DNA of 64,000 nt, taken from assembly GCA_040285745.1 (NCBI GenBank), contig JAUFOR010000005.1:372001-436000 (forward strand), read 5' to 3'. Position 1 is the first letter of the stretch; each line of letters opens with the position of its first letter. The notes beneath the pieces were generated by a model that did no database searches, was not told the origin of the DNA, and saw only the letters and a list, made by a program, of their open reading frames with translations. Of the stretch, positions 13,433 to 52,164 are shown piece after piece. Source of the stretch: Barthelona sp. PCE (lineage: Eukaryota). The position numbers were made by a program, and so were the translations under genes.

Positions 13433-14078
13433 TTGTAAAAGCTAAATAGCTGTGAAAAGGAAAAAAAAACTAAAAACAAACTCACTGATGAAATCTCTTC
13501 TATTGATGGTTGGTTTCACCTTAGATATTCATAATTGCCTTTGACTTCCAGCATTAAAGCACCATAACAGTGAAGTAAACCCAAAACGTTTTGGGAATTC
13601 CTATTCAAATCATAATTTGAGTCAATAATAAGGGTAAACTAATGTAATTCATCGGTATTACCACAATACTCAACTTTATGGGCAAAAATCAGAAACTTTT
13701 CTACCAAACAGGCAACATACTGTAATTGTGGATATTCATCTTGAGTATATCGACTTTTCCCAGTTAATGCGTTAGTTTTTTTTAATGTGAATCCCATAAT
13801 GTTGAAAGAAGGCACGCTTTTTATACGATTTATAGGAGCAAATTTGCTTTAGGATAGTGCACACGATCTTCCTCGAATGCTCTATGAGCACTCTCATTCA
13901 ACTTTTCTTCTCTTTTGATCATAATAAAAAAAGAGCAATTGAACATTCTCAACGCAAGCTCAGCACTTTGATGCTAGCCTCCCAAGTAAGTACACAACTC
14001 TGAAATAAACTTCCAATAAGATGTGCTAGTTCTTTTTTCACTTCACAGAGTTTTTTGAAAACTCATTAAATCACGTTT

Positions 14079-16163: not shown

Positions 16164-16730
16164 ATTTTTTTTTTTTCCCACGCATTTTTCTTAACATACT
16201 TGGATGTAAGCCATCCTTAAATAAACACACTCTAATATAAATAGTTCTATTTAGTATTTAGCAGTATAAACAGGTCACACTAGCGTTGGGTACTCGGATT
16301 CTCAGCCATTCAAGAGCATGACGTAAGACCCTGTGGGTGGTCAATGTGATCAACGGCACACCTCGTCGGCTAAAACGGCATTTCAGCCATGCACTACACA
16401 GGAGGGATTGCCGGTATGCAATATTCAGTAGCATTTATTTTCAAGCAGTGCTTTTGAGTTATATATAGTACAGTAACTGTGTGTGCGTATATGATTAAGC
16501 TGTATAAGTTAATTTAGGGGTTGTAAAATTCATTGAAAAAAAAAAAAGTTTAATTAGTAATTTTTAACTAACTGTGGGTCTCTACCGTTTGATTATACCA
16601 CTATTTTCGATATACTTAACCTCTAATTACGTGAGATGGGGGAGAAAACTGACCGGAAATTGTGAATAACCAATACGGTACTTGACACTTTGGCTTGAAC
16701 TTTTCCGTCAAACTAACAATTTGGAGTTTG

Positions 16731-16751
16731 GAGTGTGTAGCTCAGTGGTAG
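16731..16751 (+). pseudogene. tRNA-Ala 5' fragment (nt 1-21); identical copies at 18118, 19507, 20905, 22300, 23702, 25098
   Basis: GAGTGTGTAGCTCAGTGGTAG is identical to 32235-32255 but is followed by ACTCTACCTTTT instead of the tRNA body. It contains the A box only. Confidence 0.9.
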
Positions 16752-19700
16752 ACTCTACCTTTTGAAAAGTTTTGGTGGAGGCAATTTGCTACTATATGTA
16801 ATGCCCATAGAAAACTATGAACGATTATAAAGGATAGTAGGGAGATTCTTTACAGAGGTCATGGTACCGCATACGGGCTACCATCTTCAGTTTGAAAGTC
16901 ATACATCTCGTATTTCAATTACTAAGCAGTACAACTAGAATAAATAGGAAAACTGGTTATAACACCAGCATATGTTCTATTCCATTCTCTGTTCAAAATC
17001 AACTGCAAGATCTTCCTAACAGGGATACGATTGTAATGTCATGCTTGTTTATCGTATTGTTATTGGATTACAGAATGTTTTCTGAAATATTTTTTTCCTA
17101 ATCCAAATCTTCCACCAACCTCAATATGAAGTGTAACCCATTGTATAAGGCCTGTCTCCTCATTTATAAAAAAGAAAATCAAAAATGATTAATTGCCTAC
17201 TTCCAAAAAAAGTATAAATATTAGTAATTCCTGTATGAAACATTGGAAAGTTCAATTAAAAAATCTAAAACTTCAATTACGTGCGCAGTATGCCCGTGTC
17301 ACGAAAACCCGTGCTCGTCCACACTGAAACAGCCGATTTATATGCTTCAACAGCCACTGAGTTGTAGTCAAACAAGGTTGCACTGAATAAAAAATAACAG
17401 CCCAATGCCGTCCAAACTGTTGCCCTCTTCGCCAAAGTGCCCGTCCTCGCTGCTGTGATGCCCGTGGGAATTTTGAGTGATCCGTGAAAACGGTGATAAA
17501 ACAAAATGCGAAATGTTCATGCTGTGCCACTACGATGTGAGGCCCTGTTGTTGTCTTAAGGTCCGACCAGCTTGCTTAGTGCGTTTTGAGCGGGTAAATT
17601 GGTTTTCAGTACAACATGTCGATACAACGCTTTATCTATCTGTTGTTAATGTGTACTCGGATTTCCTGTTATTAATGTGTACTCAGATTTCCTGCATTCA
17701 AGAGCATGACGTAAGACCCTGTGGGTGGTCAATGTGATCAACGGCACACCTCGTCGGCTAAAACGGCATTTCAGCCATGCACTACACAGGAGGGATTGCC
17801 GGTATGCAATATTCAGTAGCATTTATTTTCAAGCAGTGCTTTTGAGTTATATATAGTACAGTAACTGTGTGTGCGTATATGATTAAGCTATATAAGTTAA
17901 TTTAGGGGTTGAAAAATTTATTGAAAAAAAAAAATGTTAATTAGTAATTTTTAACTGATTTTGGGTCTCTGCCGTTTGATTATACCACTATTTTCGATAT
18001 ACTTAACCTCTAATTACGTGAGATGGGGGAGAAAACTGACCGGAAATTGTGAATAACCAATACGGTACTTGACACTTTGGCTTGAACTTTTCCGTCAAAC
18101 TAACAATTTGGAGTTTGGAGTGTGTAGCTCAGTGGTAGACTCTACCTTTTCAAAAGTTTTGGTGGAGTTGCTACTGTTTGTAATGCCCATAGAAAACTAT
18201 GAACGATTATAAAGGATAGTAGGAGATTCTTTACAGAGATTATGGTGCCGCATATGGGCTACCATCTTCAGTTTGAAAGTCCGTACATCTCGTATTTCAA
18301 TTACTAAGCAGTACAACTAGAATAAATAGGAAAACTAGTGATAACACCAGTATATGTTCAATTCCATTCTCTGTTCAAAATCAACTGCAAGATCTTCCTA
18401 ACAGGGATACGATTGTAATGTCATGCTTGTTTATCGTATTGTTATTGGATTACAGAATGTTTTCTGAAATATTTTTTTCCTAATCCAAATCTTCCACCAA
18501 CCTCAATATGAAGTGTAACCCATTGTATAAGGCCTGTCTCCTCATTTATAAAAAAGAAAATCAAAAATGATTAATTGCCTACTTCCAAAAAAAGTATAAA
18601 TATTAGTAATTCCTGTATGAAACATTGGAAAGTTCAATTAAAAAATCTAAAACTTCAATTACGTGCGCAGTATGCCCGTGTCACGAAAACCCGTGCTCGT
18701 CCACACTGAAACAGCCGATTTATATGCTTCAACAGCCACTGAGTTGTAGTCAAACAAGGTTGCACTGAATAAAAAATAACAGCCCAATGCCGTCCAAACT
18801 GTTGCCCTCTTCGCCAAAGTGCCCGTCCTCGCTGCTGTGATGCCCGTGGGAATTTTGAGTGATCCGTGAAAACGGTGATAAAACAAAATGCGAAATGTTC
18901 ATGCTGTGCCACTACGATGTGAGGCCCTGTTGTTGTCTTAAGGTCCGACCAGCTTGCTTAGTGCGTTTTGAGCGGGTAAATTGGTTTTCAGTACAACATG
19001 TCGATACAACGCTTTATCTATCTGTTGTTAATGTGTACTCGGATTTCCTGTTATTAATGTGTACTCAGATTTCCTGCATTCAAGAGCATGACGTAAGACC
19101 CTGTGGGTGGTCAATGTGATCAACGGCACACCTCGTCGGCTAAAACGGCATTTCAGCCATGCACTACACAGGAGGGATTGCCGGTATGCAATATTCAGTA
19201 GCATTTATTTTCAAGCAGTGCTTTTGAGTTATATATAGTACAGTAACTGTGTGTGCGTATATGATTAAGCTATATAAGTTAATTTAGGGGTTGAAAAATT
19301 TATTGAAAAAAAAAATGTTAATTAGTAATTTTTAACTGATTTTGGGTCTCTGCCGTTTGATTATACCACTATTTTCGATATACTTAACCTCTAATTACGT
19401 GAGATGGGGGAGAAAACTGACCGGAAATTGTGAATAACCAATACGGTACTTGACACTTTGGCTTGAACTTTTCCGTCAAATGACCATTTTAGAGATGGTA
19501 CAGTTGGAGTGTGTAGCTCAGTGGTAGACTCTACCTTTTGAAAAGTTTTGGTGGAGGCAATTTGCTACTATATGTAATGCCCATAGAAAACTATGAACGA
19601 TTATAAAGGATAGTAGGAGATTCTTTACAGAGATCATGGTGCCGCATACGGGCTACCATCTTCAGTTTGAAAGTCCGTACATCTCGTATTTCAATTACTA

Positions 19701-22700
19701 AGCAGTACAACTAGAATAAATAGGAAAACTAGTGATAACACCAGTATATGTTCAATTCCATTCTCTGTTCAAAATCAACTGCAAGATCTTCCCTAACAGG
19801 GATACGATTGTAATGTCATGCTTGTTTATCGTATTGTTATTGGATTACAGAATGTTTTCTGAAAACATTTTTTCCAATCCAAATCTTCCACCAACCTCAA
19901 TATGAAGTGTAACCCATTGTATAAGGCCTGTCTCCTCATTTATAAAAAAGAAAATCAAAAATGATTAATTGCCTACTTCCAAAAAAAAAGTATAAATATT
20001 AGTAATTCCTGTATGAAACATTGGAAAGTTCAATTAAAAAAATCTAAAACTTCAATTACGTGCGCAGTATGCCCGTGTCACGAAAACCCGTGCTCGTCCA
20101 CACTGAAACAGCCGATTTATATGCTTCAACAGCCACTGAGTTGTAGTCAAACAAGGTTGCACTGAATAAAAAATAACAGCCCAATGCCGTCCAAACTGTT
20201 GCCCTCTTCGCCAAAGTGCCCGTCCTCGCTGCTGTGATGCCCGTGGGAATTTTGAGTGATCCGTGAAAACGGTGATAAAACAAAATGCGAAATGTTCATG
20301 CTGTGCCACTACGATGTGAGGCCCTGTTGTTGTCTTAAGGTCCGACCAGCTTGCTTAGTGCGTTTTGAGCGGGTAAATTGGTTTTCAGTACAACATGTCG
20401 ATACAACGCTTTATCTATCTGTTGTTAATGTGTACTCGGATTTCCTGTTATTAATGTGTACTCAGATTTCCTGCATTCAAGAGCATGACGTAAGACCCTG
20501 TGGGTGGTCAATGTGATCAACGGCACACCTCGTCGGCTAAAACGGCATTTCAGCCATGCACTACACAGGAGGGATTGCCGGTATGCAATATTCAGTAGCA
20601 TTTATTTTCAAGCAGTGCTTTTGAGTTATATATAGTACAGTAACTGTGTGTGCGTATATGATTAAGCTATATAAGTTAATTTAGGGGTTGAAAAATTTAT
20701 TGAAAAAAAAAAATGTTAATTAGTAATTTTTAACTGATTTTGGGTCTCTGCCGTTTGATTATACCACTATTTTCGATATACTTAACCTCTAATTACGTGA
20801 GATGGGGGAGAAAACTGACCGGAAATTGTGAATAACCAATACGGTACTTGACACTTTGGCTTGAACTTTTCCGTCAAATGACCATTTTAGAGATGGTACA
20901 GTTGGAGTGTGTAGCTCAGTGGTAGACTCTACCTTTTGAAAAGTTTTGGTGGAGGCAATTTGCTACTATATGTAATGCCCATAGAAAACTATGAACGATT
21001 ATAAAGGATAGTAGGAGATTCTTTACAGAGATCATGGTGCCGCATACGGGCTACCATCTTCAGTTTGAAAGTCCGTACATCTCGTATTTCAATTACTAAG
21101 CAGTACAACTAGAATAAATAGGAAAACTAGTGATAACACCAGTATATGTTCAATTCCATTCTCTGTTCAAAATCAACTGCAAGATCTTCCTAACAGGGAT
21201 ACGATTGTAATGTCATGCTTGTTTATCGTATTGTTATTGGATTACAGAATGTTTTCTGAAAACATTTTTTCCAATCCAAATCTTCCACCAACCTCAATAT
21301 GAAGTGTAACCCATTGTATAAGGCCTGTCTCCTCATTTATAAAAAAGAAAATCAAAAATGATTAATTGCCTACTTCCAAAAAAAGTATAAATATTAGTAA
21401 TTCCTGTATGAAACATTGGAAAGTTCAATTAAAAAATCTAAAACTTCAATTACGTGCGCAGTATGCCCGTGTCACGAAAACCCGTGCTCGTCCACACTGA
21501 AACAGCCGATTTATATGCTTCAACAGCCACTGAGTTGTAGTCAAACAAGGTTGCACTGAATAAAAAATAACAGCCCAATGCCGTCCAAACTGTTGCCCTC
21601 TTCGCCAAAGTGCCCGTCCTCGCTGCTGTGATGCCCGTGGGAATTTTGAGTGATCCGTGAAAACGGTGATAAAACAAAATGCGAAATGTTCATGCTGTGC
21701 CACTACGATGTGAGGCCCTGTTGTTGTCTTAAGGTCCGACCAGCTTGCTTAGTGCGTTTTGAGCGGGTAAATTGGTTTTCAGTACAACATGTCGATACAA
21801 CGCTTTATCTATCTGTTGTTAATGTGTACTCGGATTTCCTGTTATTAATGTGTACTCAGATTTCCTGCATTCAAGAGCATGACGTAAGACCCTGTGGGTG
21901 GTCAATGTGATCAACGGCACACCTCGTCGGCTAAAACGGCATTTCAGCCATGCACTACACAGGAGGGATTGCCGGTATGCAATATTCAGTAGCATTTATT
22001 TTCAAGCAGTGCTTTTGAGTTATATATAGTACAGTAACTGTGTGTGCGTATATGATTAAGCTATATAAGTTAATTTAGGGGTTGAAAAATTTATTGAAAA
22101 AAAAAAATGTTAATTAGTAATTTTTAACTGATTTTTGGGTCTCTGCCGTTTGATTATACCACTATTTTCGATATACTTAACCTCTAATTACGTGAGATGG
22201 GGGAGAAAACTGACCGGAAATTGTGAATAACCAATACGGTACTTGACACTTTGGCTTGAACTTTTCCGTCAAATGACCATTTTAGAGATGGTACAGTTGG
22301 AGTGTGTAGCTCAGTGGTAGACTCTACCTTTTGAAAAGTTTTGGTGGAGGCAATTTGCTACTATATGTAATGCCCATAGAAAACTATGAACGATTATAAA
22401 GGATAGTAGGAGATTCTTTACAGAGATCATGGTGCCGCATACGGGCTACCATCTTCAGTTTGAAAGTCCGTACATCTCGTATTTCAATTACTAAGCAGTA
22501 CAACTAGAATAAATAGGAAAACTAGTGATAACACCAGTATATGTTCAATTCCATTCTCTGTTCAAAATCAACTGCAAGATCTTCCTAACAGGGATACGAT
22601 TGTAATGTCATGCTTGTTTATCGTATTGTTATTGGATTACAGAATGTTTTCTGAAAACATTTTTTCCAATCCAAATCTTCCACCAACCTCAATATGAAGT

Positions 22701-25118
22701 GTAACCCATTGTATAAGGCCTGTCTCCTCATTTATAAAAAAAAGAAAAAAAATAAAAAATGATTAATTGCCTACTTCCAAAAAAAAAGTATAAATATTAG
22801 TAATTCCTGTATGAAACATTGGAAAGTTCAATTAAAAAAATCTAAAACTTCAATTACGTGCGCAGTATGCCCGTGTCACGAAAACCCGTGCTCGTCCACA
22901 CTGAAACAGCCGATTTATATGCTTCAACAGCCACTGAGTTGTAGTCAAACAAGGTTGCACTGAATAAAAAATAACAGCCCAATGCCGTCCAAACTGTTGC
23001 CCTCTTCGCCAAAGTGCCCGTCCTCGCTGCTGTGATGCCCGTGGGAATTTTGAGTGATCCGTGAAAACGGTGATAAAACAAAATGCGAAATGTTCATGCT
23101 GTGCCACTACGATGTGAGGCCCTGTTGTTGTCTTAAGGTCCGACCAGCTTGCTTAGTGCGTTTTGAGCGGGTAAATTGGTTTTCAGTACAACATGTCGAT
23201 ACAACGCTTTATCTATCTGTTGTTAATGTGTACTCGGATTTCCTGTTATTAATGTGTACTCAGATTTCCTGCATTCAAGAGCATGACGTAAGACCCTGTG
23301 GGTGGTCAATGTGATCAACGGCACACCTCGTCGGCTAAAACGGCATTTCAGCCATGCACTACACAGGAGGGATTGCCGGTATGCAATATTCAGTAGCATT
23401 TATTTTCAAGCAGTGCTTTTGAGTTATATATAGTACAGTAACTGTGTGTGCGTATATGATTAAGCTATATAAGTTAATTTAGGGGTTGAAAAATTTATTG
23501 AAAAAAAAAATGTTAATTAGTAATTTTTAACTGATTTTGGGTCTCTGCCGTTTGATTATACCACTATTTTCGATATACTTAACCTCTAATTACGTGAGAT
23601 GGGGGAGAAAACTGACCGGAAATTGTGAATAACCAATACGGTACTTGACACTTTGGCTTGAACTTTTCCGTCAAATGACCATTTTAGAGATGGTACAGTT
23701 GGAGTGTGTAGCTCAGTGGTAGACTCTACCTTTTGAAAAGTTTTGGTGGAGGCAATTTGCTACTATATGTAATGCCCATAGAAAACTATGAACGATTATA
23801 AAGGATAGTAGGAGATTCTTTACAGAGATCATGGTGCCGCATACGGGCTACCATCTTCAGTTTGAAAGTCCGTACATCTCGTATTTCAATTACTAAGCAG
23901 TACAACTAGAATAAATAGGAAAACTAGTGATAACACCAGTATATGTTCAATTCCATTCTCTGTTCAAAATCAACTGCAAGATCTTCCTAACAGGGATACG
24001 ATTGTAATGTCATGCTTGTTTATCGTATTGTTATTGGATTACAGAATGTTTTCTGAAAACATTTTTTCCAATCCAAATCTTCCACCAACCTCAATATGAA
24101 GTGTAACCCATTGTATAAGGCCTGTCTCCTCATTTATAAAAAAAAAAAAATCAAAAATGATTAATTGCCTACTTCCAAAAAAAGTATAAATATTAGTAAT
24201 TCCTGTATGAAACATTGGAAAGTTCAATTAAAAAATCTAAAACTTCAATTACGTGCGCAGTATGCCCGTGTCACGAAAACCCGTGCTCGTCCACACTGAA
24301 ACAGCCGATTTATATGCTTCAACAGCCACTGAGTTGTAGTCAAACAAGGTTGCACTGAATAAAAAATAACAGCCCAATGCCGTCCAAACTGTTGCCCTCT
24401 TCGCCAAAGTGCCCGTCCTCGCTGCTGTGATGCCCGTGGGAATTTTGAGTGATCCGTGAAAACGGTGATAAAACAAAATGCGAAATGTTCATGCTGTGCC
24501 ACTACGATGTGAGGCCCTGTTGTTGTCTTAAGGTCCGACCAGCTTGCTTAGTGCGTTTTGAGCGGGTAAATTGGTTTTCAGTACAACATGTCGATACAAC
24601 GCTTTATCTATCTGTTGTTAATGTGTACTCGGATTTCCTGTTATTAATGTGTACTCAGATTTCCTGCATTCAAGAGCATGACGTAAGACCCTGTGGGTGG
24701 TCAATGTGATCAACGGCACACCTCGTCGGCTAAAACGGCATTTCAGCCATGCACTACACAGGAGGGATTGCCGGTATGCAATATTCAGTAGCATTTATTT
24801 TCAAGCAGTGCTTTTGAGTTATATATAGTACAGTAACTGTGTGTGCGTATATGATTAAGCTATATAAGTTAATTTAGGGGTTGAAAAATTTATTGAAAAA
24901 AAAAAATGTTAATTAGTAATTTTTAACTGATTTTGGGTCTCTGCCGTTTGATTATACCACTATTTTCGATATACTTAACCTCTAATTACGTGAGATGGAC
25001 GAGAAAACTGACCGGAAATTGTGAATAACCAATACGGTACTTGACACTTTGGCTTGAACTTTTCCGTCAAATGACCATTTTAGAGATGGTACAGTTGGAG
25101 TGTGTAGCTCAGTGGTAG
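16752..25118. mobile_element. Six head-to-tail non-autonomous derivatives of the 7.1-kb element (16752-18138, 18139-19527, 19528-20925, 20926-22320, 22321-23722, 23723-25118)
   Basis: Each unit shares its left ~770 bp almost identically with 25119-25888, a further ~100 bp in diverged form with ~26000-26100, and its right ~200 bp in diverged form with 32056-32255. No long ORF. Confidence 0.72.
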
Positions 25119-26168
25119 ACTCTACCTTTTGAAAAGTTTTGGTGGAGGCAATTTGCTACTATATGTAATGCCCATAGAAAACTATGAACGATTATAAAGG
25201 ATAGTAGGGAGATTCTTTACAGAGGTCATGGTACCGCATACGGGCTACCATCTTCAGTTTGAAAGTCATACATCTCGTATTTCAATTACTAAGCAGTACA
25301 ACTAGAATAAATAGGAAAACTGGTTATAACACCAGCATATGTTCTATTCCATTCTCTGTTCAAAATCAACTGCAAGATCTTCCTAACAGGGATACGATTG
25401 TAATGTCATGCTTGTTTATCGTATTGTTATTGGATTACAGAATGTTTTCTGAAATATTTTTTTCCTAATCCAAATCTTCCACCAACCTCAATATGAAGTG
25501 TAACCCATTGTATAAGGCCTGTCTCCTCATTTATAAAAAAGAAAATCAAAAATGATTAATTGCCTACTTCCAAAAAAAGTATAAATATTAGTAATTCCTG
25601 TATGAAACATTGGAAAGTTCAATTAAAAAATCTAAAACTTCAATTACGTGCGCAGTATGCCCGTGTCACGAAAACCCGTGCTCGTCCACACTGAAACAGC
25701 CGATTTATATGCTTCAACAGCCACTGAGTTGTAGTCAAACAAGGTTGCACTGAATAAAAAATAACAGCCCAATGCCGTCCAAACTGTTGCCCTCTTCGCC
25801 AAAGTGCCCGTCCTCGCTGCTGTGATGCCCGTGGGAATTTTGAGTGATCCGTGAAAACGGTGATAAAACAAAATGCGAAATGTTCATGTTATTTCTTTGT
25901 TCTCCTGTAATGACTGCTGTACTGTTGTTTAAGCTACTAATTTGACGGTTCCGACTGTATGTTTATGGTACGAAACATCCTTTTTCGAAGTGAATACTGT
26001 AACACTACGATATGATGCTTTGTGGGTGGCTTAAAGGTTTTGAAGGTCCGACTAACTTGATTAGTGTGTTTACAGCGGGGTAAATTGGTTTTCATTACAA
26101 AAACCTGTCTTCATATTTTCTTACTCTATTCCATTTTTGGTCTAGTTCTGATAGTTTATTCTGATAGC

Positions 26169-27557
26169 ATGACTGAAATGCGTGAACAAAACACTATGGA
26201 ATCGTCTATAAATGAAGATAGAAAAAATTCTGTATCAAATAGTTACTCGAGAATGGCTTCTAACCATGATTCTCCAGGTTACGGAATACGTAAGAAACTT
26301 TCTGCCTCTGTTGTTGATCAACGTCTTGAGTTAGGTGACTTGGTTCGGCAAACTTGCGAGAAGGAGAATGAGGAGTTATTTGATTCACTACCTTCTGATC
26401 GTTTTGATGAAAGTCTTGATCTTGAACGCATCCACGTGCGCATACGTAGGCATCATTCGGTGACAGGTAAGTATCTTAGTACTGCTCTTATTTCTGAACC
26501 CACTGATACTGAAATCCGCGAACGTTTTCTCCAACGTTTCATAACTCCTTCTGCCAATCCCTTTGTCATTCACACTGCTGAACTTGCCATGTGTTACGAC
26601 GAGTTTCCTGTGGGTACCACGTGCAGTGATGGTGAGTTTCATCCAGTTGCTGAAGCTGAGCATCCAGCTCTCACCGTCATCCGTGATATTGTCGGCGATG
26701 TAAGATATGGGGATGTCACTCCTGCTATGTGCTATACGATGTTACATTCGTATTTGTCTTCCGATGAAGTGAAGCAGGTGTTGAAGATTACGTTGCTCAG
26801 AAAATCAAAAGGATTCAGGGTTAGTCTCAGAAATTCTAACGATTCGACTAATCTGTGTTTCGTGGACTTCAAGCATGACAAGGAATCTGATCACTTGGAA
26901 ATGGCCCTTCGTTTTGGTAAGCTTACTGTAGACTTTGACATCATCAAGCGTAAACTTGAAGACCATGTCAATATGCGTACACTCTCTGGCAGTTACACGT
27001 TTGAATATTTATGTCAGACAATTGCTGTCATGCGTCTTCTGGCTCCTGACAAGGCTAAGTACAAAAAGAACAGTTTCCATGAGCTTTTTATGAAGCCATG
27101 TGGACATTACAGTTCTGCGTTTGATTGTACTGGTGATGATGTCGATCGTCACAAGTACATTGGGTTTTTATTACTTATGCTAACTGGTTTGGAGAAGTTC
27201 TGCATCAACAGCGGTATTGTTCACTGTGATGTTGAGACGAATTCTGTTTGTCCTAGTACTGGAGGACAATTTTTTGTCACAACAACCTCTTCTAAGAATG
27301 AAGATGATGTTCGTGTTCTCACCATCAAGACTAGAAGTGCTCTTATTGCTATCCGTACAGGGAATTTACTGTATTTGTTTGATAAGAGCAAACCATTGAG
27401 ATCATGTTTTAAAGATTGCCATGGTCATAACCCGGAGTATCCACATCCTATGATTTGTGGAACATGCTGCAATTTCTATCCTACTATTGATGGTTACGGG
27501 GCGTCGTCTACTTCTGGTATGATGGTGCCTACGTTTATGGTTACCCAAAGTAAATGA
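26169..27557 (+). CDS. Transposon accessory/cargo protein of unknown function, with a kinase-like catalytic-loop remnant
   Basis: 462 aa from ATG 26169 (track start 26064 is GTG). Contains LLLMLTGLEKFCINSGIVHCDVETN, reminiscent of kinase alphaE-HxD, and a Cys/His-rich C-terminus (CFKDCHGH..CGTCC). Confidence 0.65.
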   Translation: MTEMREQNTMESSINEDRKNSVSNSYSRMASNHDSPGYGIRKKLSASVVDQRLELGDLVRQTCEKENEELFDSLPSDRFDESLDLERIHVRIRRHHSVTGKYLSTALISEPTDTEIRERFLQRFITPSANPFVIHTAELAMCYDEFPVGTTCSDGEFHPVAEAEHPALTVIRDIVGDVRYGDVTPAMCYTMLHSYLSSDEVKQVLKITLLRKSKGFRVSLRNSNDSTNLCFVDFKHDKESDHLEMALRFGKLTVDFDIIKRKLEDHVNMRTLSGSYTFEYLCQTIAVMRLLAPDKAKYKKNSFHELFMKPCGHYSSAFDCTGDDVDRHKYIGFLLLMLTGLEKFCINSGIVHCDVETNSVCPSTGGQFFVTTTSSKNEDDVRVLTIKTRSALIAIRTGNLLYLFDKSKPLRSCFKDCHGHNPEYPHPMICGTCCNFYPTIDGYGASSTSGMMVPTFMVTQSK

Positions 27558-27630
27558 TTCTGCAATAATGTGTATTCACTACTCTTACCACAAAGCTAAG
27601 ATAAAATAGGTTTTTATTATTGTTTGTTAA

Positions 27631-30600
27631 TCAACTATCGGTTCTCTGAATCTTAAAACCGCTGCGTTCCCCTATAGTGCGTTTAACGGGGATTCCATTT
27701 ATGCACAAAAAGATGTACTGCTTAAGGGAAAAAGTAAATCCTCCAAAATCAAGCATTGTTCTGATTACGTTGTCTACGATTCCAGTTTTGGTCAACATAC
27801 CGGGAACGGTCACATTGTCGATTGTAAAGAATTCATAACCAATGGCAGTTAGCTTGAAATAATATGCAATATCTCTCAATCGCGTTAGCTTCGATGTTTC
27901 TTTGCACGTGTACTGCATAATACTATGCGCAATAACAACTTGAGGTGCCATACGAGAGAAATCCTTAATTCCTAGTGTCTGTGGACGATTAATCAATCTG
28001 GAAACTTCTGCAGAGCGCAATCCAATAGGAAAAATGGGATCGGCATTCATAAGATCAATAAATTCTTGGTGCCTGAGCGGATCGAATCGTAACCCACGAC
28101 AGGCCATAACAGCTGCAGCATCCGGCTGAAAATCGGAATCATGTTGAAGTAGCCATGCAACACGTTGTTGGATATCACTTAGTGAACGATTTCCACAGTT
28201 GAGGTTAGTCCAGCACTTGTGAATGTGGCTGGGAAAGGCATCATCTGACGCATCTGGATGTTTAACCTGAAGAAAATCCAAAGCCATAGCAACAAAACGA
28301 TTGAGCAACAAATCATCAGTATAGCTACTATCGACGTTACTGTAGACATCAGTATCAGAAGCAAAAGTTTCGGCGAGAGGTTTGTGCAACTGAATCAGGT
28401 TTTCAAAAGAAACAGACGTGATGTTAACTCTTTCACCCTTTCGAACAAGTTTGTTCCACTGCTCTGTCTTCTTCTTAAACAATCCATCACCCGAAGCATC
28501 GAAATTGTCCTTAGCTTGCTTCAGTGTCATGATTTCATTCCATTTACGTGTAAAATGTTCAAAGGAGCAAATCTTACCAGAGGACATTCTTGAAGAGATG
28601 AGATCTGTTAAGTGAAAGGCCATGTGCAAATTAGTATTCTTACCAAGAAACTTCATTATGTTAGCTGCTATTGAAGGAACAAGGACGGTATTATATTCGA
28701 TGGAGTAACTGATCTGGCCTAAATATGGTTTGGATACTGAGTAAGGCTTCAGCAGTGTGTGGAGAACTTTATCTACTGCTACAAAACGAATATCAAGATT
28801 GGCTAGAGTTCCGTGCACACGGTTCTTTCTTGTGAATATCAACTTGAATTCAATTGGAGATGGTAATAAATGAGAACCTAAAAAGGGGAGAGTAATCTCG
28901 CAGCCAGAACCAACCTTAAACATAAATTCCTTACTGGCACCAATAACGTTTAGACGACAAACGTCAACAGCAACATCACCCTCGTCAATAAAAACGGTAG
29001 AAACAACCTCAGATCTAGTATTATCAACAGCAACATTGAAAACCGTATACTCAGTGTCATCCAACAAAAAAGAGCCATTCAACTGTAAAATATGCATATC
29101 GTGACATATGGAAACAGAGTTTAAAGTCTTACTAAGAACTTTGGAAACCCCATTGTCGCGTAATCTTTTTCTGGATGCTATAACTCGATCAAAATTACAC
29201 ATCAAACCTTGTTTTTTAAAAACTGAAAGCATACTGTCAATCATCGCCTTTCTCAAATACTCTTTAGCGTAATCGTCAACTTCTAAGACAGAAGCTTCAA
29301 AACGAGTTGTATTAAGAAGAAAATTACCATTAATAAAGCTAAAGACAGTCTCTTGAGGATCGGAAGTGATCATAACATCGTCATTGATGTCGTAATTTGT
29401 GAGAAATATCGTGGCTCTACCAACTTTAAAAGCTAGAAAAGGAATATGAGAATAATGCAGCTTGAACAAAACATCTTCTGTCAAACAATGAGTACAATTA
29501 CCAAAGAAGCGGTCAACGGGATAACCAGATGCAATGAGATCCTTTGAAGTAGGGAAGATATCAGGAAGAGCAGGGAGAATACGAATAAGATTGGTACTAT
29601 CAAAGAACTCTTGAGCTTTGTCTAAAGCACGAAATGCAACATGTCTGGGAATATCCTTCCATTTTGTATCGTACCTAAGCAAGCAATCAACAACAGAAAA
29701 ACGAAACAACTTGAGAAGATCAGAAAACCAACCCATTGCAGTCTTAATGACTGAATCAGTCACTGAACATGAAATACTAGATTTAACAATCCTGTTCCTG
29801 TTTCTGGTCTCAAAAACAAAGCCCTGTCTATTTCCATCAACGAAAAGTGGTTCATAGTTCTTATCAAAAAGTTCACTCAACTGTGTGAATGCAGTATTAC
29901 GATCTGTACTGTCCTTGATGACATTATAATGAAAAGTAAGCAAAGAATGGAAGAACTGGGAGATTAAATTCAAGAATGCATATTGTTCTCCACTTAATGA
30001 CATCTCTTCAATAAACCTACCACAGTTAGCTAGATACTTAAAGTGGACAATGTTTTGCGTTTGTGAACTCTTGACTTCTGTGCTACCACCAAAAACTATC
30101 TTGGATGCAAAACCTTTCTTTAGCACATCAGTCATTGTATCTAAAGCTTTGGAAGGCTTGAGACTCCGGAAACGAGTAATTAGTAGCTCCTCAAATGATT
30201 GAAAACGAGCTAGGATTTCCTGAGTCAAAGGAGAATTCATATCAGCTGCTCTTGGATTAAAATCCTTAGAAATTTCGCCTGAAGGCTTCATCAAATCAAA
30301 TAGATCAGCACCGGTAAACTCGCTATGTATTGATATGAATGAAAAAATATCTCTTAATAAACGATAAAATAACCTCTTGTCAAAAAGAAACAAAAGAATG
30401 GACTGGATTGAATGTAAACGTATCATAGTGGTGAGAAAAGCCTCATTAAAGTGATCATTCGAGGTGATATCGGCATAACTAACATCCTTAAACAGTGTGA
30501 GAAAGTCAGTTTCATTGAGAACATAATCTTTAATACTATCTTCATCTTCCTTTACCTCGACGTTTCTGCTGACGAAATGATCCAGTTCATTTATCTTAAG

Positions 30601-31493
30601 TTTGCCAATTAAATCGACTGTCCATGAAAGAAGACTGACAACAACATGCATCAATGATTGTTTGGCATCACTTAACCCGGATAAGGAAGCAAACAGTGTT
30701 CTGAGGTCTATCTGTTTGTCTAAACGCTCAATCAACTGCGTAGATGTTAAAGAACTCAGATCACTCTGTGAATAAAAAATACCTGAATTCAAAAACGCAT
30801 GACTGATACACGCATGTGGATAAACGTTCGCTTTAAGTGGTTCTGTCATGATATCGGGGACGTCTTTACCTTCGAATAACAAAGGAAAAACTAAACTGTA
30901 ACGACGACAGATGAGCTTAATATTCTCGATAAATCCATCTTTAAAGCTGTTCATTTGGGTTAAAAACAAAATGTTTGCAGCACAACCGTCCAAAGAGACA
31001 GTAATCTTGGCATTAACTTTGTTAAAATGAAAAAAATCAAGCATAAAACGAAAAGCAACCCATAAGTGGTCAGCAGAGGTAGTTTCTATTGGGAAAAACC
31101 AGATAGGATATGAAAAAACTGTATCCTCATCGGCGTCTTCTCTTGGCCGCCAATCCGCAATTGAAAAATCAGGATATCTCTGATTAAAAGCAACCAATAA
31201 AGACTTTTTGACCATAATTGTAGCACCTACGTAATGATTAAAGCCTTTAGAAGTGCCATCAAACGTTAAGCTAATGTCCTTGTTTTCGGATATGAGGTAC
31301 TCTGACAATTTGCGAATACCATGAGCGGGTGTGCGTAAGAACTTCGCTATGTCGGCGTATCTCCGGTCCTCTATGCACTGCTTGAGATCAAAACGCTGGA
31401 AATCTACTGAGTGTTAGTTAAAAAAAAGGGTATGAAAATTTAAATACCTTGTTCCCCGTTAAGATACCTGGGAACTGTTTCACGTTGTTGCAT
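27631..31493 (-). CDS. DDE-type transposase-like protein (hAT/Dada/MULE/P/Kolobok CxxH clade), probably spliced, ~1273 aa
   Basis: RNase H-like motifs in the expected order: DISLTFDGTS..YVGATI (D at 31258-60), TTSADHL..KITVSLDGCAANI (D at 30988-90), HACISHAFLN (CxxH at 30799-30810). The track ORF starts at TTG 31308. The frame stays open to 31406, and a 41-nt GT-AG intron joins it in frame to ATG 31493. The third catalytic E was not identified. Confidence 0.72.
31407..31447 (-). other. Spliceosomal intron (41 nt) in the transposase gene
   Basis: Minus strand reads CAAG|GTATTT...TTTTTA ACTAACACTCAG|TAGATT. Removing it eliminates the in-frame TAA at 31414-16 and restores frame to ATG 31493. 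Confidence 0.75.
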
Positions 31494-32234
31494 AAGAGCT
31501 TTTCCAAAGAAGAATATATAAAAAACTAAGGGAAAGAAGATGAAAAAACTGAAAACAGGGTTCTTACCTGTTGTGACTAACGCATCTTTCCTCTGTTATT
31601 TTGTGTAAAACGTGCACATCGGTGACCCCCGAACAACAGAATAGCTTGAAATACATAACCATACATTCAGAAATGTTCTATGCCCACATGACAGTAAAAG
31701 TGTCCTTTCGCAAGCATTTAGTGTGTAACCCGAGACATGATACCCGATAAAGGTGTGTAAAAATATAAAAATACGTTCTTAGTAGTAAGTTTTTTGAAAA
31801 AGATTTACGTGCGTGCGGTGCTCGTTTACACCCGTAGACATTTGAAAAACTAGTACCATTCTAATCCCTAAATGGTTCTTATAAACTAATCATGAAACCA
31901 TTAAACGTGAAAAATTAAAATACACACACATACGTTCTATTCCCCTAAATTATCTCACAATCTATTTATGTATGAATGTACATTAGTGGTATGGCCCAAA
32001 TCAAGTTTATTTTAAACTAAGAACAATTATTAAATTTCTTTAAAAATATGAAAACTAATTAGTAATTTTTAATCGATTGTGAGTCTTTATCGTTTGATTG
32101 TACCACTATTTTCAACATACTTAACCTTTAATTACGTTAAATGGGGGAGAAAACTAACCATTAATTGTGAATAACCAATACGATACTTGACATTTTCGTT
32201 AACGCTTTTCCGTCAAAGAACCATTTTAGGGTTT

Positions 32235-32307
32235 GAGTGTGTAGCTCAGTGGTAGTAGCGCGTCGTTAGCATCGACGAGGCCGGGAGTTCGATTCTTCTC
32301 ACATTCA
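32235..32307 (+). tRNA. tRNA-Ala(AGC)
   Basis: Acceptor stem GAGTGTG/CACATTC with G3:U70 (Ala identity), anticodon arm CGTCG-TTAGCAT-CGACG, T arm GGGAG-TTCGATT-CTTCT, discriminator A. The D arm has an atypical extra T (GGTAGTAGC). Confidence 0.93.
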
Positions 32308-32312
32308 TTTTT
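32308..32312 (+). terminator. RNA polymerase III terminator (T5)
   Basis: TTTTT immediately follows the tRNA discriminator base. Confidence 0.75.
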
Positions 32313-32600
32313 GCATAGTTTTTCTATCACTTAAAATGTTGATGCATAAAATAATATTATAAGCATGTGTTTCTATATTGTTAAAATTGTTTTTATCATT
32401 TTTGACACTTTTTGTATTTGTAACTCTAAGGTTGAGAGTTCAATTTTTAATAAAGTCAACTTTTCCAAATGTTTTGCTAATATCAGTTTTTTGGAATTCA
32501 AGTCAATTTCAAAAAATTCCCTAAAATTTTATTAATAAAATTTTCCAATTGGCATCGATTTCAGCAATTTTTGTTATTGAATGATGGAAGCATGGAACTC

Positions 32601-32666
32601 ATGGGGTGGGAACTCAATTACCCGACCTCGAGCTTAGGAACTTATTCACGCCATCCAACTAGATAT
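32601..32666 (-). pseudogene. Possible degenerate tRNA-Arg(CCT) relic
   Basis: Minus strand CTAGTTGGATGGCG..TTCCTAAG..GAGGTCGGGTAATTGAGTTCCCACC shows D-loop-, CCT-anticodon- and T-arm-like words in order, but the stems do not pair properly. Confidence 0.3.
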
Positions 32667-32968
32667 CTGTCAGTAAACATGCATGTATCCGAGAGAACTC
32701 AGCCCCTGTGAAGTCACATATATTTAACTCAAAAATTGTATGAATTTCGCAAAAAATACCATACTGCATACTTTTTATAATAATAATACGTTTTTAGCTG
32801 CTTTTTGAATCATATTAATTAAGCTTTGAATGAAAACAAGATTTTAATCTAGATCTGTCTTATATACGCATTTGTTGTTCATGTTTTGAGCATGTAAAGT
32901 TAAATATATAACTGGACACATGCTGTCACAACCATTGATACATCGCAAGTTTTTTTTTCACTCTAATC

Positions 32969-35071
32969 ATGCCTCGAATTCGTAGATATGAGGATGATTT
33001 GATTGTTAACTCACACCCCGAGGGCAGGATAATATTTGAAGGTCAAGGTGTTACATTGCTGAGTTCAGAGCCGGAAATTTTTGATATCAGTCGCATTGAA
33101 ACTTTTGAAGGGAAAGAATTTATTGGGTTTGTAGGTGACATACAAAAGGAGCCTCTCAAGTACATTTCAAAGCAGAAAGTGGAAACGGGTTTCATAATCG
33201 TTAAGAAGATTGGTGCTGAATTTGAAATTTTATTCTTTGATAGCATCACCAGTGACGAGTACACGAGCAAAAGAGTCCCATTCCCTTTGGAGTTGAATGG
33301 ACGTATCTCCAAGAAATTCATTCCACTTGATGCGAACCACTTTTTATTTACAATGCTTAGTAATCACAGTAAGCATTGTTATCTTTTCAGCACACTAACC
33401 GAGCAGCATAGATACCTTGGAGAGTTTGACTTTTCAGTTACAGCTGATTATTCTTTTGTTTTGTTGAAGAAGCTTGAGGATGATAGCATTTGGCACTACA
33501 ACTTTACAGTGGATGACATGGATGAACTCCGTGAACTTGATATCAAACAATTAGATGGAGTGAATGAGCACACCATATGTAGTTGTGCAAATTCTGATTG
33601 TGTTCTATATGTTTCCTTTGGAAGTGGTATTGAGCAAATGATAATTATCGACAGACAAAGAAACCGTGTTGACCTGATTGAACGATTCTGTGAACAGTTA
33701 AAGAATGTTAAAATAGATTACTTCACTAATTTTGTTTTGTTTACCTTAACGGAGAATGTTTTTACTGCAATGTTCAGTAGTTCGTTATTTTGTACTCTAA
33801 TTCACATAGAAAACGGTGAGTTAAAGATGTCGTGTGGAGAAATGAAATATTGTGTTAGCTGTATTCACTCTATTCACTTAAATTTGACGAATGATTTTTG
33901 TGATAGAGATTGTGTTATATATGGAGCATCTAAGAGAACAGGAGTTTGTGGTTCCATCAAGTTTAGAAGTTCACATAACGAAGTTTTGCGATTGAACAAA
34001 CTTTGCCCTCTGAATATTTATTTTAATGGAATAGTACATTATTCTGATGATGATAGTAGACATTATTTCTTTTTTTTTAAAGAGAAGAAAATCATAATTG
34101 TTAAGGATGTGAAAAAAAAAAATTTATTACCAATTTTTCATAAAGTAATTTCATATCATGTATCTAAAGATTGTCATTTTTACGTAATGCTTGAAAGTTC
34201 TGGTAAAGAACAAGGCACTAATTATACAAAAATACAATGGAAGGATTGTGATATCAGACCAATTGTTGAAGACATACCTAGTATAAGAGGTTCAGAATTT
34301 TTTTGCTTCATACTTGGATTACCAATTAATACTATATATGATGACGATGAAAATTGTCTTATATATTTGGGAGACACATTGATTTTAGAGCTGGATGAAG
34401 ATAATTTGATTTATAATGTTTTTGGTACCATTACTGGTGATTCTGTTTGCATTTATTGCACTGAATCAATTCATTTTTTCCGATTTTTGATAGAAAACAA
34501 TAACGTAAAGGTTGAAAAACATATTATAATTGATCATGATTATAACATTTCGCAAATTCATTTTTTTCCACATCCAATGGATACTATAAATCATCAGCTC
34601 TTTGTTGTTGATGAATACGGTGATGACTTTGAAATGAAGTACTTGTACTGTTTAGATTGGTCAACAGAAAGTGTATTAGAACCTTTCACTCTTTTTAAGC
34701 AGTCATTAGATGGGGAGGAATTGGTTAATTTAAATTTTAAAGGCTTTGTGAGCAATTCCCATATAAGATTGGATTCAGGTGTAGCTAGAGTATCGATTTT
34801 TGAGGGTGCAATAACATTGGACGTTTTTAATAATAGTATTTTACCACATGTAGAAAACATATATACAGATCTAAATCAACCTAATGGCGTTATACAGACA
34901 GCAACATATGAAGCATATACTAAATCAGTTGTGTTGAATACGTACAACATTGAGGAGGATCCGGAATCAACAAATACAGAAATCGATACATTCCATCTTC
35001 CATCTTTTCTATCTGAGACGTTTATTGTTGAGTATTGTATGCCGTATTATCATAGTTTAATAGCAGATTAA
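32969..35071 (+). CDS. Uncharacterised ~700-aa protein, 'MPR' family member 2
   Basis: 700-aa ORF starting MPRI. Beta-rich composition and C-terminal TFHLPSFL pattern are similar to members 1 and 3. Confidence 0.7.
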   Translation: MPRIRRYEDDLIVNSHPEGRIIFEGQGVTLLSSEPEIFDISRIETFEGKEFIGFVGDIQKEPLKYISKQKVETGFIIVKKIGAEFEILFFDSITSDEYTSKRVPFPLELNGRISKKFIPLDANHFLFTMLSNHSKHCYLFSTLTEQHRYLGEFDFSVTADYSFVLLKKLEDDSIWHYNFTVDDMDELRELDIKQLDGVNEHTICSCANSDCVLYVSFGSGIEQMIIIDRQRNRVDLIERFCEQLKNVKIDYFTNFVLFTLTENVFTAMFSSSLFCTLIHIENGELKMSCGEMKYCVSCIHSIHLNLTNDFCDRDCVIYGASKRTGVCGSIKFRSSHNEVLRLNKLCPLNIYFNGIVHYSDDDSRHYFFFFKEKKIIIVKDVKKKNLLPIFHKVISYHVSKDCHFYVMLESSGKEQGTNYTKIQWKDCDIRPIVEDIPSIRGSEFFCFILGLPINTIYDDDENCLIYLGDTLILELDEDNLIYNVFGTITGDSVCIYCTESIHFFRFLIENNNVKVEKHIIIDHDYNISQIHFFPHPMDTINHQLFVVDEYGDDFEMKYLYCLDWSTESVLEPFTLFKQSLDGEELVNLNFKGFVSNSHIRLDSGVARVSIFEGAITLDVFNNSILPHVENIYTDLNQPNGVIQTATYEAYTKSVVLNTYNIEEDPESTNTEIDTFHLPSFLSETFIVEYCMPYYHSLIAD

Positions 35072-45204: not shown

Positions 45205-45954
45205 TCAAGTAAGAAGTTTTGGACCTTCAGCAGCAGGCAATGATGGTTGCAATCCGTCGAAATTAAGTGTAATGGTTGAGTTTTGGGGTTTATGCTCAGT
45301 AGATCTATTTTGAAATTGCACTCCACAACATCCACTGCATTTAGTAATCAAAATAGTTAATATCAGTAATATACCACAGTAAGCAAGTGTACGAACAGAT
45401 AAGCTGTCGACGAATCCTTCAACGATATCAGCAAATAGTTGAATTGTACTGAGGCTTGTGACAACATTATTCGGATTTTGATGCATACACTGTTCCCATT
45501 CAAGACATTTCTCAATCATGAAAGGAACAGGAGCAACGCAATTGTTCTCGTTGAAATTTATACGGCATGCTTCCATTTTCGTTGATAATTCTTCTTTAGC
45601 CATATTTTTACGTATGTTGATATCTTTTATAAACGTAAAGATAAGAAAACTCACAATAAATAGTATTATTATGACGGAAAACGTTTGTGCAAGCACTTGA
45701 AAGAAGGTAAGAAGATTTCCAAAGGTGAAAATATTCTTCCTATTTGTTCTTGAAGGTGAGCCTTTTTTCAGTGGCACAATGTCCCCCGGCTCACTACCTG
45801 TATCGCTCATTTGATCCAATGACTTGGCCCTTGGTCGTGTTGTGAGAATAGGTTTAGATTTTCTTGTGAGGAGAGGTTTCACATTCTTTTTCAGTCGTTC
45901 CACGTCTCTATCTGTGAATTCATCCTCAATATAGCGGTTGTACTTGAACATCAT
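45205..45954 (-). CDS. Brr6/Brl1-family nuclear envelope protein
   Basis: Two TM helices enclose the four-Cys luminal motif CRINFNENNC..PVPFMIEKCLEWEQCM, followed by LFADIVEGFVDSLSVRTL. Confidence 0.85.
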   Translation of the reverse strand: MMFKYNRYIEDEFTDRDVERLKKNVKPLLTRKSKPILTTRPRAKSLDQMSDTGSEPGDIVPLKKGSPSRTNRKNIFTFGNLLTFFQVLAQTFSVIIILFIVSFLIFTFIKDINIRKNMAKEELSTKMEACRINFNENNCVAPVPFMIEKCLEWEQCMHQNPNNVVTSLSTIQLFADIVEGFVDSLSVRTLAYCGILLILTILITKCSGCCGVQFQNRSTEHKPQNSTITLNFDGLQPSLPAAEGPKLLT

Positions 45955-46019
45955 GACGAGAAAGAGGTATAGTCTTTAACAGCTTGCATTACGGTTTTAA
46001 TCTCTTTCTGCAAGGGCGA

Positions 46020-47336
46020 ATGGCAAATTATGTCATTGGAAGCGTCTTCATCGTTCTGATATTTCTTTCAAGGGGTTTTGGATCCAAAAATGTTTTGGAT
46101 GTAAACGTAGGGCCACATACTGATGAAAACATTATGTTTCACTCGAACTCAGCTCTTCTTGAATTCTATTTTTACCAGGCGGAATATTTTTTGCGCCTTT
46201 CTGATACAAGTTCCTATTTTACAGATATTAACTTTCACACCGTGGATTATTTTGACAACAACCACACATCTCCTGTACGTAACAGCGCGAAGAACATCTT
46301 TGCAGGAACAAGGATATCTGTTTTGAAGAGCAAAATGCCAAACCAGGTTGTTTCGGATTCCACTCTTGCCAAATATATAAGTACATCAAAGAAAAGAATT
46401 TCAGGTGGAGTAGCAACGAACTTTGAGTCGAATTTGCTCGGGTTACCTGTTGTTGGTTACCCAGAATTGCTTTTACAAAGTTTTTTCCCGTCATTCGATT
46501 GCATGGATTTAAAAGAAGCTGGTTTAGATATAAAAGGGCTTGTAGCTGTAGTTTCTATGCGTAATTACGAGTTTAACGAACTTCTAGAACTGTTATATCG
46601 CCTGATTGTGAGTAATTTTGATATTTTTATATTTGACGTAAATACTAGTGAATTCACACAATTATCCCGTAAGATTCAAGAGAAACTTACCAATGAAGGT
46701 AAGACAACTGAAATGGTGCAGCAACTTCACTATTTAGATATAAGGAAGACAACACTGGAACTGTTATCAACAGTATACGCATGTAGTCAGGTTACCATAT
46801 CAAACAATGTACAATCTCTGCTCTTTGCAATGGCCCATCATAAACCAATTGTTGCCATAACGGATGACACTTACGACGTTGAGAACATGATAGGATTGGT
46901 GGACGCCCCATGGCTAATGATCAGGAAAGAGCTTGCTGAGGTCGAATCCATCATTGAAAAGATGCATAGCGTGCTTTCAAGCCTACCGCATATCAAACAA
47001 ATGTGTGAGAACCTGGTTCTGATGGTTTCTGACCTAAATCACTGTATGTATTTGCGTGCAGTGTATCTAGACAATGTGGAGGGGTATGGTAGATGCAAGA
47101 ATGTCTCTTTCGACAAGGAAATGCTAACTTCAGGATATAATATTGTGTTTCCGGATGTATACAACAGCAGAAACTTTATGCCCCTTTATTATTCATCGAG
47201 CACTGCACCCATGACCCTAGTTTATGTGCCCACACTTGTGGTGACAACGATTATTGTATTTATCTTTACTTTTTTGGTTGGCAGCGTGTATCGAAAATTC
47301 ACAGTTTTATTCAGGCGGAGAAAACGATCCATATGA
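46020..47336 (+). CDS. Membrane-anchored secretory protein, divergent polysaccharide pyruvyltransferase-like (GT-B fold)
   Basis: ATG 46020 gives a signal peptide. GYPELLL and ACSQVTISNNVQSLLFAMAHHKPIVAI resemble the DPALLL and 'ADLVIGMRLHALIFAAALGVPFIAI' patterns. C-terminal TM followed by RRRKR. Confidence 0.45.
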   Translation: MANYVIGSVFIVLIFLSRGFGSKNVLDVNVGPHTDENIMFHSNSALLEFYFYQAEYFLRLSDTSSYFTDINFHTVDYFDNNHTSPVRNSAKNIFAGTRISVLKSKMPNQVVSDSTLAKYISTSKKRISGGVATNFESNLLGLPVVGYPELLLQSFFPSFDCMDLKEAGLDIKGLVAVVSMRNYEFNELLELLYRLIVSNFDIFIFDVNTSEFTQLSRKIQEKLTNEGKTTEMVQQLHYLDIRKTTLELLSTVYACSQVTISNNVQSLLFAMAHHKPIVAITDDTYDVENMIGLVDAPWLMIRKELAEVESIIEKMHSVLSSLPHIKQMCENLVLMVSDLNHCMYLRAVYLDNVEGYGRCKNVSFDKEMLTSGYNIVFPDVYNSRNFMPLYYSSSTAPMTLVYVPTLVVTTIIVFIFTFLVGSVYRKFTVLFRRRKRSI

Positions 47337-51968: not shown

Positions 51969-52164
51969 AAAGATTGTTTTCTATGCATTGAAATGGGATT
52001 AAAAGTGAATTATGTTTTCTTTCTAATATCAATGCTTTCATTTGTTTAATGTGTAATTAATTGTATTATGTCATTGGTATTTGGGATAAAAATATCTAAA
52101 TTAAGAGAAGAAGATGTAAAAAAATCAGAATAGATTCATCTCAACAACCTGTTAATTCTACTAT

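Follow-up and report, generated by a model that had tools for sequence, protein, structure and literature searches.

A 1.39-kb tandem array whose units end inside a tRNA-Ala(AGC) gene of Barthelona sp. PCE

Results and Discussion

In a 64-kb window of the Barthelona sp. PCE genome (the whole stretch analysed, 64,000 nucleotides of contig JAUFOR010000005.1), seven truncated 5' pieces of a tRNA-Ala(AGC) gene form one regular head-to-tail tandem array with a period of 1.39 kb and are not separate insertions, and the whole gene stands at the end of the last and longest unit. We favour, with moderate confidence, an origin within the locus itself, that is, an old tandem (segmental) duplication with a boundary in the D loop of the tRNA gene, followed by the loss of genes from the upstream copy and by recent amplification and conversion.

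Barthelona sp. PCE is an anaerobic, free-living metamonad with a 10.2-Mb genome, which has been called the smallest yet known among free-living eukaryotes; its assembly was made from Nanopore reads with Illumina polishing, and the word "tRNA" is absent from the main text of the genome paper (PMC11316075). The window is eukaryotic and gene-dense, nearly without introns, and has a GC content of about 38%. It contains 22 ORFs of at least 150 codons, including those for a PI3K-related kinase, a kinesin, SBDS, a Brr6-like protein and a hybrid histidine kinase, and half of these large ORFs (11 of 22) have no Pfam match at the thresholds used. The genes are tightly packed, with spacers often of 17–300 bp, and some stop-to-stop frames overlap (45205–45975 with 45957–47336, and the latter with 47307–51980); despite this packing, no long ORF lies in the roughly 1050 bp that precede P0002 or in the roughly 800 bp that separate P0001 from the tRNA (P0001 and P0002 being the two ORFs of the longest unit). 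No paralogy was found among 18 ORFs of the window, and the idea that the two ORFs flanking the array (14070–16163 and 32939–35071) are duplicates of each other was rejected, as they share no similarity.

The intact tRNA gene and its truncated copies

The one tRNA gene of the window, tRNA-Ala(AGC) on the + strand, is called by ARAGORN at 32234–32308 and matched by Rfam at 32235–32307 (52.1 bits, E 7.6e-09), and is followed by TTTTT. By sequence reading, its acceptor stem, GAGTGTG/CACATTC, has six Watson-Crick pairs and the alanine identity pair G3:U70, with A73 as the discriminator. The D arm reads GGTAG-T-AGC or, written as stem and loop, GCTC-AGTGGTAG-TAGC, with an 8-nt loop; according to Rfam, pair 13:22 (C:U) is non-standard and the D loop has one additional base. 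A non-canonical D arm placed exactly at the junction was part of the original prediction and is confirmed, given that Rfam flags C13:U22 and that the identity between the intact and the truncated copies stops exactly after GGTAG, which continues with TAGCGCG in the intact gene and with ACTCTACC in the truncated ones.

The further idea that the extra T of this D arm is a scar of the junction did not hold up. The D-arm 21-mer TAGCTCAGTGGTAGTAGCGCG was found at 45 unrelated metagenome loci, and at 32 of them the same D arm, GGTAGTAGC, lies inside intact tRNA genes called by ARAGORN (28 Thr, 2 Met, 1 Lys and 1 Asn); the extra-T D arm is therefore natural and viable, and no scar is needed to account for it. 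At the other 13 loci ARAGORN calls no tRNA over the 21-mer, some of these being cut by contig ends or apparently intron-bearing. None of the 45 loci is a tRNA-Ala or resembles the present locus. Loci L005, L011, L012 and L040, as well as L013, L019, L021 and L029, have the 21-mer, then the start of an anticodon arm and then unrelated sequence, with no ARAGORN tRNA, and are possibly intron-bearing tRNA genes; the latter four adjoin dense tRNA clusters. The truncated copies at the present locus read GGTAGA and agree for one base further with the usual GGTAGAGC, which could equally be chance (1 in 4). We take the intact tRNA-Ala(AGC), the D arm of which is unusual but exists in nature, to be the working gene.

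Positions 1–21 of the tRNA, GAGTGTGTAGCTCAGTGGTAG, have eight exact matches in the window, all on the + strand and with none expected by chance, so the 21-nt block that had been described as common to the intact tRNA and the truncated halves is real. The matches end at 16751, 18138, 19527, 20925, 22320, 23722, 25118 and 32255; the last belongs to the intact gene, and the last of the seven truncated 5' pieces occupies 25098–25118 (+). When two stretches of the 3' two-thirds of the gene were used as probes, with up to three mismatches allowed, only the intact gene matched, that is, no orphan 3' half was found. An Rfam search of 15500–33500 at E<=10 returned the tRNA and two chance-level matches, and thus neither a second tRNA-like match in this region nor an RNA gene within the units or the flank common to them.

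The similarity extends upstream of the gene, as the flank of the intact tRNA (32032–32234, +) aligns with the end of every short unit. The segment 32056–32255 is 84.7% identical to 16551–16751 (202 columns, E 7e-52), and its identity to the other six truncated copies is 80.9–83.3% over 210–236 columns. The claim of an upstream flank that is homologous but diverged is thereby upheld for seven of seven copies, over about 200–235 bp and at 81–85% identity.

Structure of the array

On its left side the array opens with a partial unit (16287–16751, +), which corresponds to the last 465 bp or so of a short unit, ends in the flank and tRNA positions 1–21, and adjoins unique sequence 124 bp past the stop codon of ORF 14070–16163. 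When aligned to the matching part of the next unit it gives 450 matches, 13 mismatches and 2 gap columns (97%), and to 19058–19527 it is 94.1% identical. Six complete short units of 1387–1402 bp follow (16752–25118, +), 97.7–98.9% identical to the reference unit, each of them starting with ACTCTACC and ending with about 235 bp of flank and tRNA positions 1–21. There are 56 variable columns among the short units, all in unit phases 12–518 and 1309–1509 and none between, and the variants fall into two types, with unit E1 a mosaic of both. Units E2–E5 have 0–2 mutual mismatches in their left parts, while E0 and E1 differ from them by 9–13.

The long unit (25119–32255, +; 7.1 kb) is collinear with the short units and runs on into the rest of the tRNA. 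Its first 770 bp are 97–100% identical to the short units, with 100% identity over these 770 bp to the first full unit, which lies at the opposite end of the array. After this come 108 extra bp and then 104 columns at 76% identity (79/104); the middle parts are unrelated, about 300 bp in the short units and 5.9 kb in the long one, and the last 200–235 bp (from 32032/32056) together with the 21 nt are 81–85% identical. Expressed in unit phase, the array starts at about 924 (16287) and the high-identity part ends at 770 (25888). A comparison of the short-unit middle with the genes of the long unit gave a best local score of 74, against 49–73 in 20 shuffles, so remnants of these genes were not found at a significant level. 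No part of the array was found elsewhere in the 64-kb window.

All seven internal junctions carry the perfect 6+6 palindrome GGTAGA-C-TCTACC, one half of which is tRNA and the other half unit start (at the last truncated copy, 25114–25126, +); by motif search it occurs nowhere else in the window, and none is expected. A comparable palindrome is present within 2 nt of 285 of 54179 background positions (0.5%), and the junction palindrome was spotted post hoc. The right end of the unit also reads GGTAG, which gives a 5-nt terminal inverted match, CTACC...GGTAG. No terminal inverted repeats were found at the ends of the long unit, the best pairs being short, internal and 71–93% complementary.

Several smaller features recur with the units. 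A second palindrome, CTTTT-G-AAAAG, stands directly after the junction palindrome (25127–25146 and the equivalent place in each unit), with a 7-bp stem, CTCTACC...GGTGGAG, beside it. Two TTTT runs lie past the junction, the first starting 9 nt after it, and an RNA polymerase III transcript of a truncated copy, if there is any, would be predicted to stop after about 34 nt. Each short unit also contains 2.1 copies of a 26-bp mini tandem repeat, CTGTTATTAATGTGTACTCAGATTTC (17640–17694, and in the same phase at 19022, 20419, 21813, 23217 and 24612). The left edge of the array (16287) falls inside a diverged copy of this mini-repeat motif, which points weakly to exchange at this repeat as the origin of the edge. 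A 100-codon minus-strand ORF present in every short unit (17273–17575) has no Pfam match and no start codon and is broken by a stop in the long unit, and it was treated as non-coding.

The two ORFs of the long unit

The long unit has two convergent ORFs, P0002 (26061–27557, +; 498 codons from stop to stop, with residue 37 as the first Met that matches a database record) and P0001 (27631–31413, -; 1260 codons). P0001 is 100% identical to the hypothetical protein PCE1_002635 of Barthelona sp. PCE at NCBI (P0003, 1272 aa). Neither ORF matches a Pfam family even at E<=10, and PDB sequence searches with both gave nothing relevant. A word search of 5.8 billion proteins with P0001 returned only itself, its protein cluster being on 1 contig, and P0001 has no second detectable copy among recorded proteins, the annotation of this genome included. 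HMMER over 1.84 billion representatives returned P0001 itself and one further protein, P0004 (E 2e-07), which was judged spurious: it is a repeat protein that hits one 97-residue stretch six times over. A word-based protein search with P0002 gave no relatives. Accordingly, no recombinase, transposase, integrase or reverse transcriptase is detectable in the ORFs of the long unit by Pfam (E<=10), word search, HMMER or PDB searches.

The orphan status of P0001 is weak evidence, because a control ORF without Pfam match, 1292 codons long and 9 kb away, likewise finds only itself, and because 11 of the 22 large ORFs are without Pfam matches. In codon usage and GC both ORFs are similar to their neighbours, with codon correlations of 0.88 and 0.76 versus 0.59–0.89 for 16 other ORFs.

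Feature scores in a protein atlas place P0001 at 0.77–0.79 to RNase-H-like transposases (P-element/THAP9-like, DUF659, hAT), which is below the tool's bar for more than a lead. Residues D64, D154 and C214-x-x-H217 follow the order D..D..CxxH, a non-specific pattern that is also the motif order seen in hAT/MuDR/P/Dada-type transposases (PMC3706591). An AlphaFold2 model of the first 420 residues from the single sequence had a mean pLDDT of 38 and was unusable, and the beta-beta-alpha-beta-alpha-beta-alpha pattern that it has around D64/D154/C214xxH217 was not relied on. For P0002 the atlas scores were 0.86–0.90 to protein-kinase-like families (Pkinase, RIO1, Kdo, APH), a weak lead without Pfam or PDB support; P0002 also contains VHCDVETN, which is loosely like a kinase catalytic loop. 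If this weak lead is right, P0002 would be cargo or a host gene and not a recombinase.

Local tandem duplication as the preferred origin

From the anatomy of the array and the identities between its parts, both of which are observed, we infer an order of events and a mechanism. The first step would have been the head-to-tail duplication of an ancestral segment that began at the unit start ACTCTACC, contained two genes and the upstream flank of the tRNA, and stopped at position 21 or 22 of the tRNA. With the right boundary of the duplication inside the tRNA, the upstream copies end in a truncated 5' piece, the last copy alone is whole, and no 3' half is left behind. The two genes would then have been lost from the upstream copy, leaving 1.39 kb, and the copies would have diverged by 15–24%. 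Recently, the short copy may have been amplified to six and a half copies via unequal crossing-over, and recombination within the array would have held the first 770 bp of the long unit 97–100% like the short units, in a tract that ends at the 108-bp indel.

Tandem segmental duplications that grow through unequal crossing-over keep a fixed period and a single orientation; they have incomplete units at their edges, variants distributed in blocks, and central units that are most alike. The present array has all of these: its units are head to tail with a period of 1387–1402 bp, it is bounded by partial units at phases of about 924 and 770, neighbouring units share block-wise variants (the 56 columns of two types and the mosaic E1), the central units are closer to each other than the edge units are, and the presumed conversion tract ends at an indel. 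The near-identity of E2–E5 and the mosaic structure of E1 look like the pattern expected of unequal exchange or conversion. The uneven identity between the short and long forms (97–100%, then 76%, then 81–85%) fits an old duplication with recent conversion better than a pair of autonomous and deleted elements. Duplication is additionally favoured by the absence of a detectable recombinase and of terminal inverted repeats, the host-like codon usage, the single locus in 64 kb and the P0001 cluster on 1 contig, while the lack of relatives of P0001 and P0002 says little in its favour.

Some points count against it. Two traits set the array apart from plain tandem duplications: the position of one boundary exactly within a tRNA gene and the perfect palindrome of its junction. 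Unless tRNA genes act as hot spots of breakage, as is established for yeast, a boundary within a 73-bp gene would have to be put down to chance, and a 6+6 palindrome at the junction has a counterpart at only 0.5% of the background (again post hoc). Duplication also predicts unique sequence before the first unit start; the truncated unit at the left edge therefore calls for an additional deletion. Furthermore, the 100% identity over 770 bp at opposite ends of the array means that the duplication model needs recent conversion.

A target-restoring mobile element as the main alternative

The original prediction held that the right end of an element supplies the tRNA flank, the acceptor strand and the A box and so regenerates the target of insertion. 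What stands of it is the arrangement: every unit, short or long, ends with about 200–235 bp of flank and tRNA positions 1–21, and the last one completes the sole intact tRNA. Less secure is the view of the units as mobile insertions, as no recombinase and no terminal inverted repeats were found, there is a single locus in the window, the left edge is truncated, and duplication gives the same picture. Since a head-to-tail duplication past tRNA position 21 gives an identical topology, topology cannot decide between the two readings.

Stated fully, the alternative is a site-specific element with a right end made of the tRNA flank and positions 1–21 (or 1–15 and a 6-bp target duplication), which enters the D loop of tRNA-Ala(AGC), rebuilds the gene and stacks in tandem; we regard it as possible but doubtful. 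The 7.1-kb unit would then be autonomous and P0001 its strongly diverged transposase of the DDE type, or a recombinase of another kind, and the 1.39-kb units would be deleted, non-autonomous forms. By analogy, the mechanism might be closest to that of the Dada transposons or to attP-type integration.

Such an element would explain why the long and short unit types have common left and right ends at the same tRNA position, why each junction is what a circle or attP junction should be, with the whole tRNA at the last one and no orphan 3' half, and why the boundary lies inside a 73-bp gene. The palindrome, composed of the target GGTAGA and the unit start TCTACC, likewise hints, by its likeness to Dada transposons, at a site-specific mechanism. 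The weak leads on P0001, namely the atlas scores to RNase-H-like transposases and the order of D64, D154 and C214xxH217, point in the same direction. Against this, P0001 has no detectable similarity to a transposase or integrase, its atlas scores are under the tool's bar, and its model is at pLDDT 38; about 60 residues precede its putative first Asp, which leaves no room there for a DNA-binding domain, and it is single-copy among annotated proteins. The two forms are 97–100% identical at the left end and only 81–85% identical at the right end. The left edge of the array is without the host-type flank and tRNA 5' half that simple integration predicts, a target duplication of 6–7 bp is inseparable from the repeat of 21 nt and 200 bp, and all copies within the window are at one locus.

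Several parallels with Dada transposons speak for the mobile reading. Dada elements occupy fixed positions inside tRNA, snRNA and 5S genes; the targets include fish tRNA-Ala and, in the protist Perkinsus, several tRNAs. The elements lack terminal inverted repeats and have sub-terminal ones with one copy also in the target. They are 4.7–11 kb long with transposases of more than 1000 aa, and are accompanied by deleted derivatives at the same site and by tandem insertions (Kojima and Jurka 2013, PMC3706591; Kojima 2022, PMC8869645). Their transposase features are a DDE triad, a C/DxxH motif, and N-terminal CCCC and C-terminal CCHC zinc fingers (PMC3706591). The present array is similar in lying inside a tRNA gene near the A box, in the choice of tRNA-Ala and in its protist host. 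It also has no terminal inverted repeats, and the single short 6+6 motif that spans the target and the unit start, with GGTAG also at the right end, may correspond to the inverted repeat that Dada elements have in common with their target. Its long unit falls in the 4.7–11-kb range and has one very large ORF, internally deleted forms are at the same site, and the arrangement is tandem.

There are differences as well. Dada insertions leave both target halves with target duplications of 6–7 bp, and restoration of the target is unreported in the accounts cited; here the site is also fixed (after position 21 at 7 of 7 junctions), but the repeated sequence is 21 nt and about 200–235 bp, and there is no 3' half. 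Dada targets nucleotides 8–13 or the anticodon, according to the same accounts, whereas the boundary here is at 21/22, with one locus known. A Dada-type DDE transposase is not recognisable in P0001/P0003 by Pfam (E<=10), word search or HMMER, only the D64..D154..C214xxH217 order being present, though the libraries searched should contain Dada-type proteins.

The attP-type elements of prokaryotes (phages, ICEs and genomic islands with tyrosine integrases) carry part of a tRNA gene and so restore the whole gene at one junction. They can integrate repeatedly or in tandem, they encode an integrase, and it is usually the 3' part of the tRNA that they replace. The units described here likewise carry a part of the tRNA, and the gene is rebuilt at one junction, as seen from the 52.1-bit tRNA at the last unit, which tandem duplication would also yield. 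Unlike attP-type elements, they carry the 5' part and the promoter-side flank instead of the 3' part and are in a eukaryotic host. No integrase was detected in either long-unit ORF by Pfam and PDB sequence searches, and the left junction, where such elements should have host flank, is a truncated short unit that is 97% like the next unit.

Retroelements offer a looser comparison. Dictyostelium TRE and DGLT-A and yeast Ty3 insert beside tRNA genes and encode a reverse transcriptase, and the setting is alike, that is, a compact genome in which tRNA genes have been proposed as safe landing sites (PMC5006619). The present array differs in lying inside the tRNA gene and in having no reverse transcriptase or LTR. 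A tRNA-derived SINE was rejected, as the units have positions 1–21 only, with no B box or T arm, the unit is 1.39 kb long, and all copies are in tandem rather than dispersed. Close to its start the unit has TGGTGGAGGC, which is similar to the primer-binding site of a tRNA that ends in GCCTCCACCA; an LTR retrotransposon was nevertheless dropped, there being neither an LTR nor a reverse transcriptase and the local tRNA-Ala having a different end.

Circle integration and assembly artefact

Campbell-type homologous integration of a circle (a plasmid or an extrachromosomal circle from this locus) bearing the truncated flank and tRNA positions 1–21 is, in our view, unlikely. A single crossover in the common segment of flank and tRNA would put a truncated copy to the left and the whole tRNA to the right; the array would come from multimers or from repetition of the event, and no dedicated recombinase would be needed. 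Such a circle would produce the same topology as the mobile element, about 220–255 bp of homology are available for the crossover, and the absence of a recombinase gene is accounted for. The junction palindrome, however, is left unexplained, and on present data this route is indistinguishable from plain unequal crossing-over.

An assembly artefact, in which a long-read assembler over-expanded or mis-joined a repeat beside the tRNA, is very improbable: tandem repeats are error-prone in an assembly from Nanopore and Illumina reads (PMC11316075), but the 56 variable columns form consistent block-wise patterns, unlike a collapsed or stuttered repeat, and the relation between truncated and whole tRNA and the diverged pair of long and short units hold at any copy number.

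Implications

Whichever reading is right, tRNA-Ala(AGC) depends on a flank that is common to the repeats, and a non-coding array of 9.6 kb is unusual in so compact a genome. If local duplication is all that took place, this is a neat but ordinary case, in which a duplication that stops inside a tRNA gene takes on the look of an integrative element, and such arrays should be read with caution.

It is conceivable, though we think it the less probable outcome, that a eukaryotic DNA element driven by an unrecognisably divergent P0001 rebuilds tRNA-Ala(AGC) and regenerates its own target in an organism with the smallest genome known among free-living eukaryotes. Integration that repairs a tRNA gene is so far known from the phages and genomic islands of bacteria and archaea. 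In the literature searched, the coverage of which was limited, we found no report of a eukaryotic element that rebuilds its target tRNA gene. If the array is mobile, it would be without precedent among known eukaryotic elements in repairing the small RNA gene that it enters, and it would illustrate how selfish DNA can survive in a 10-Mb genome that has next to no DNA to spare.
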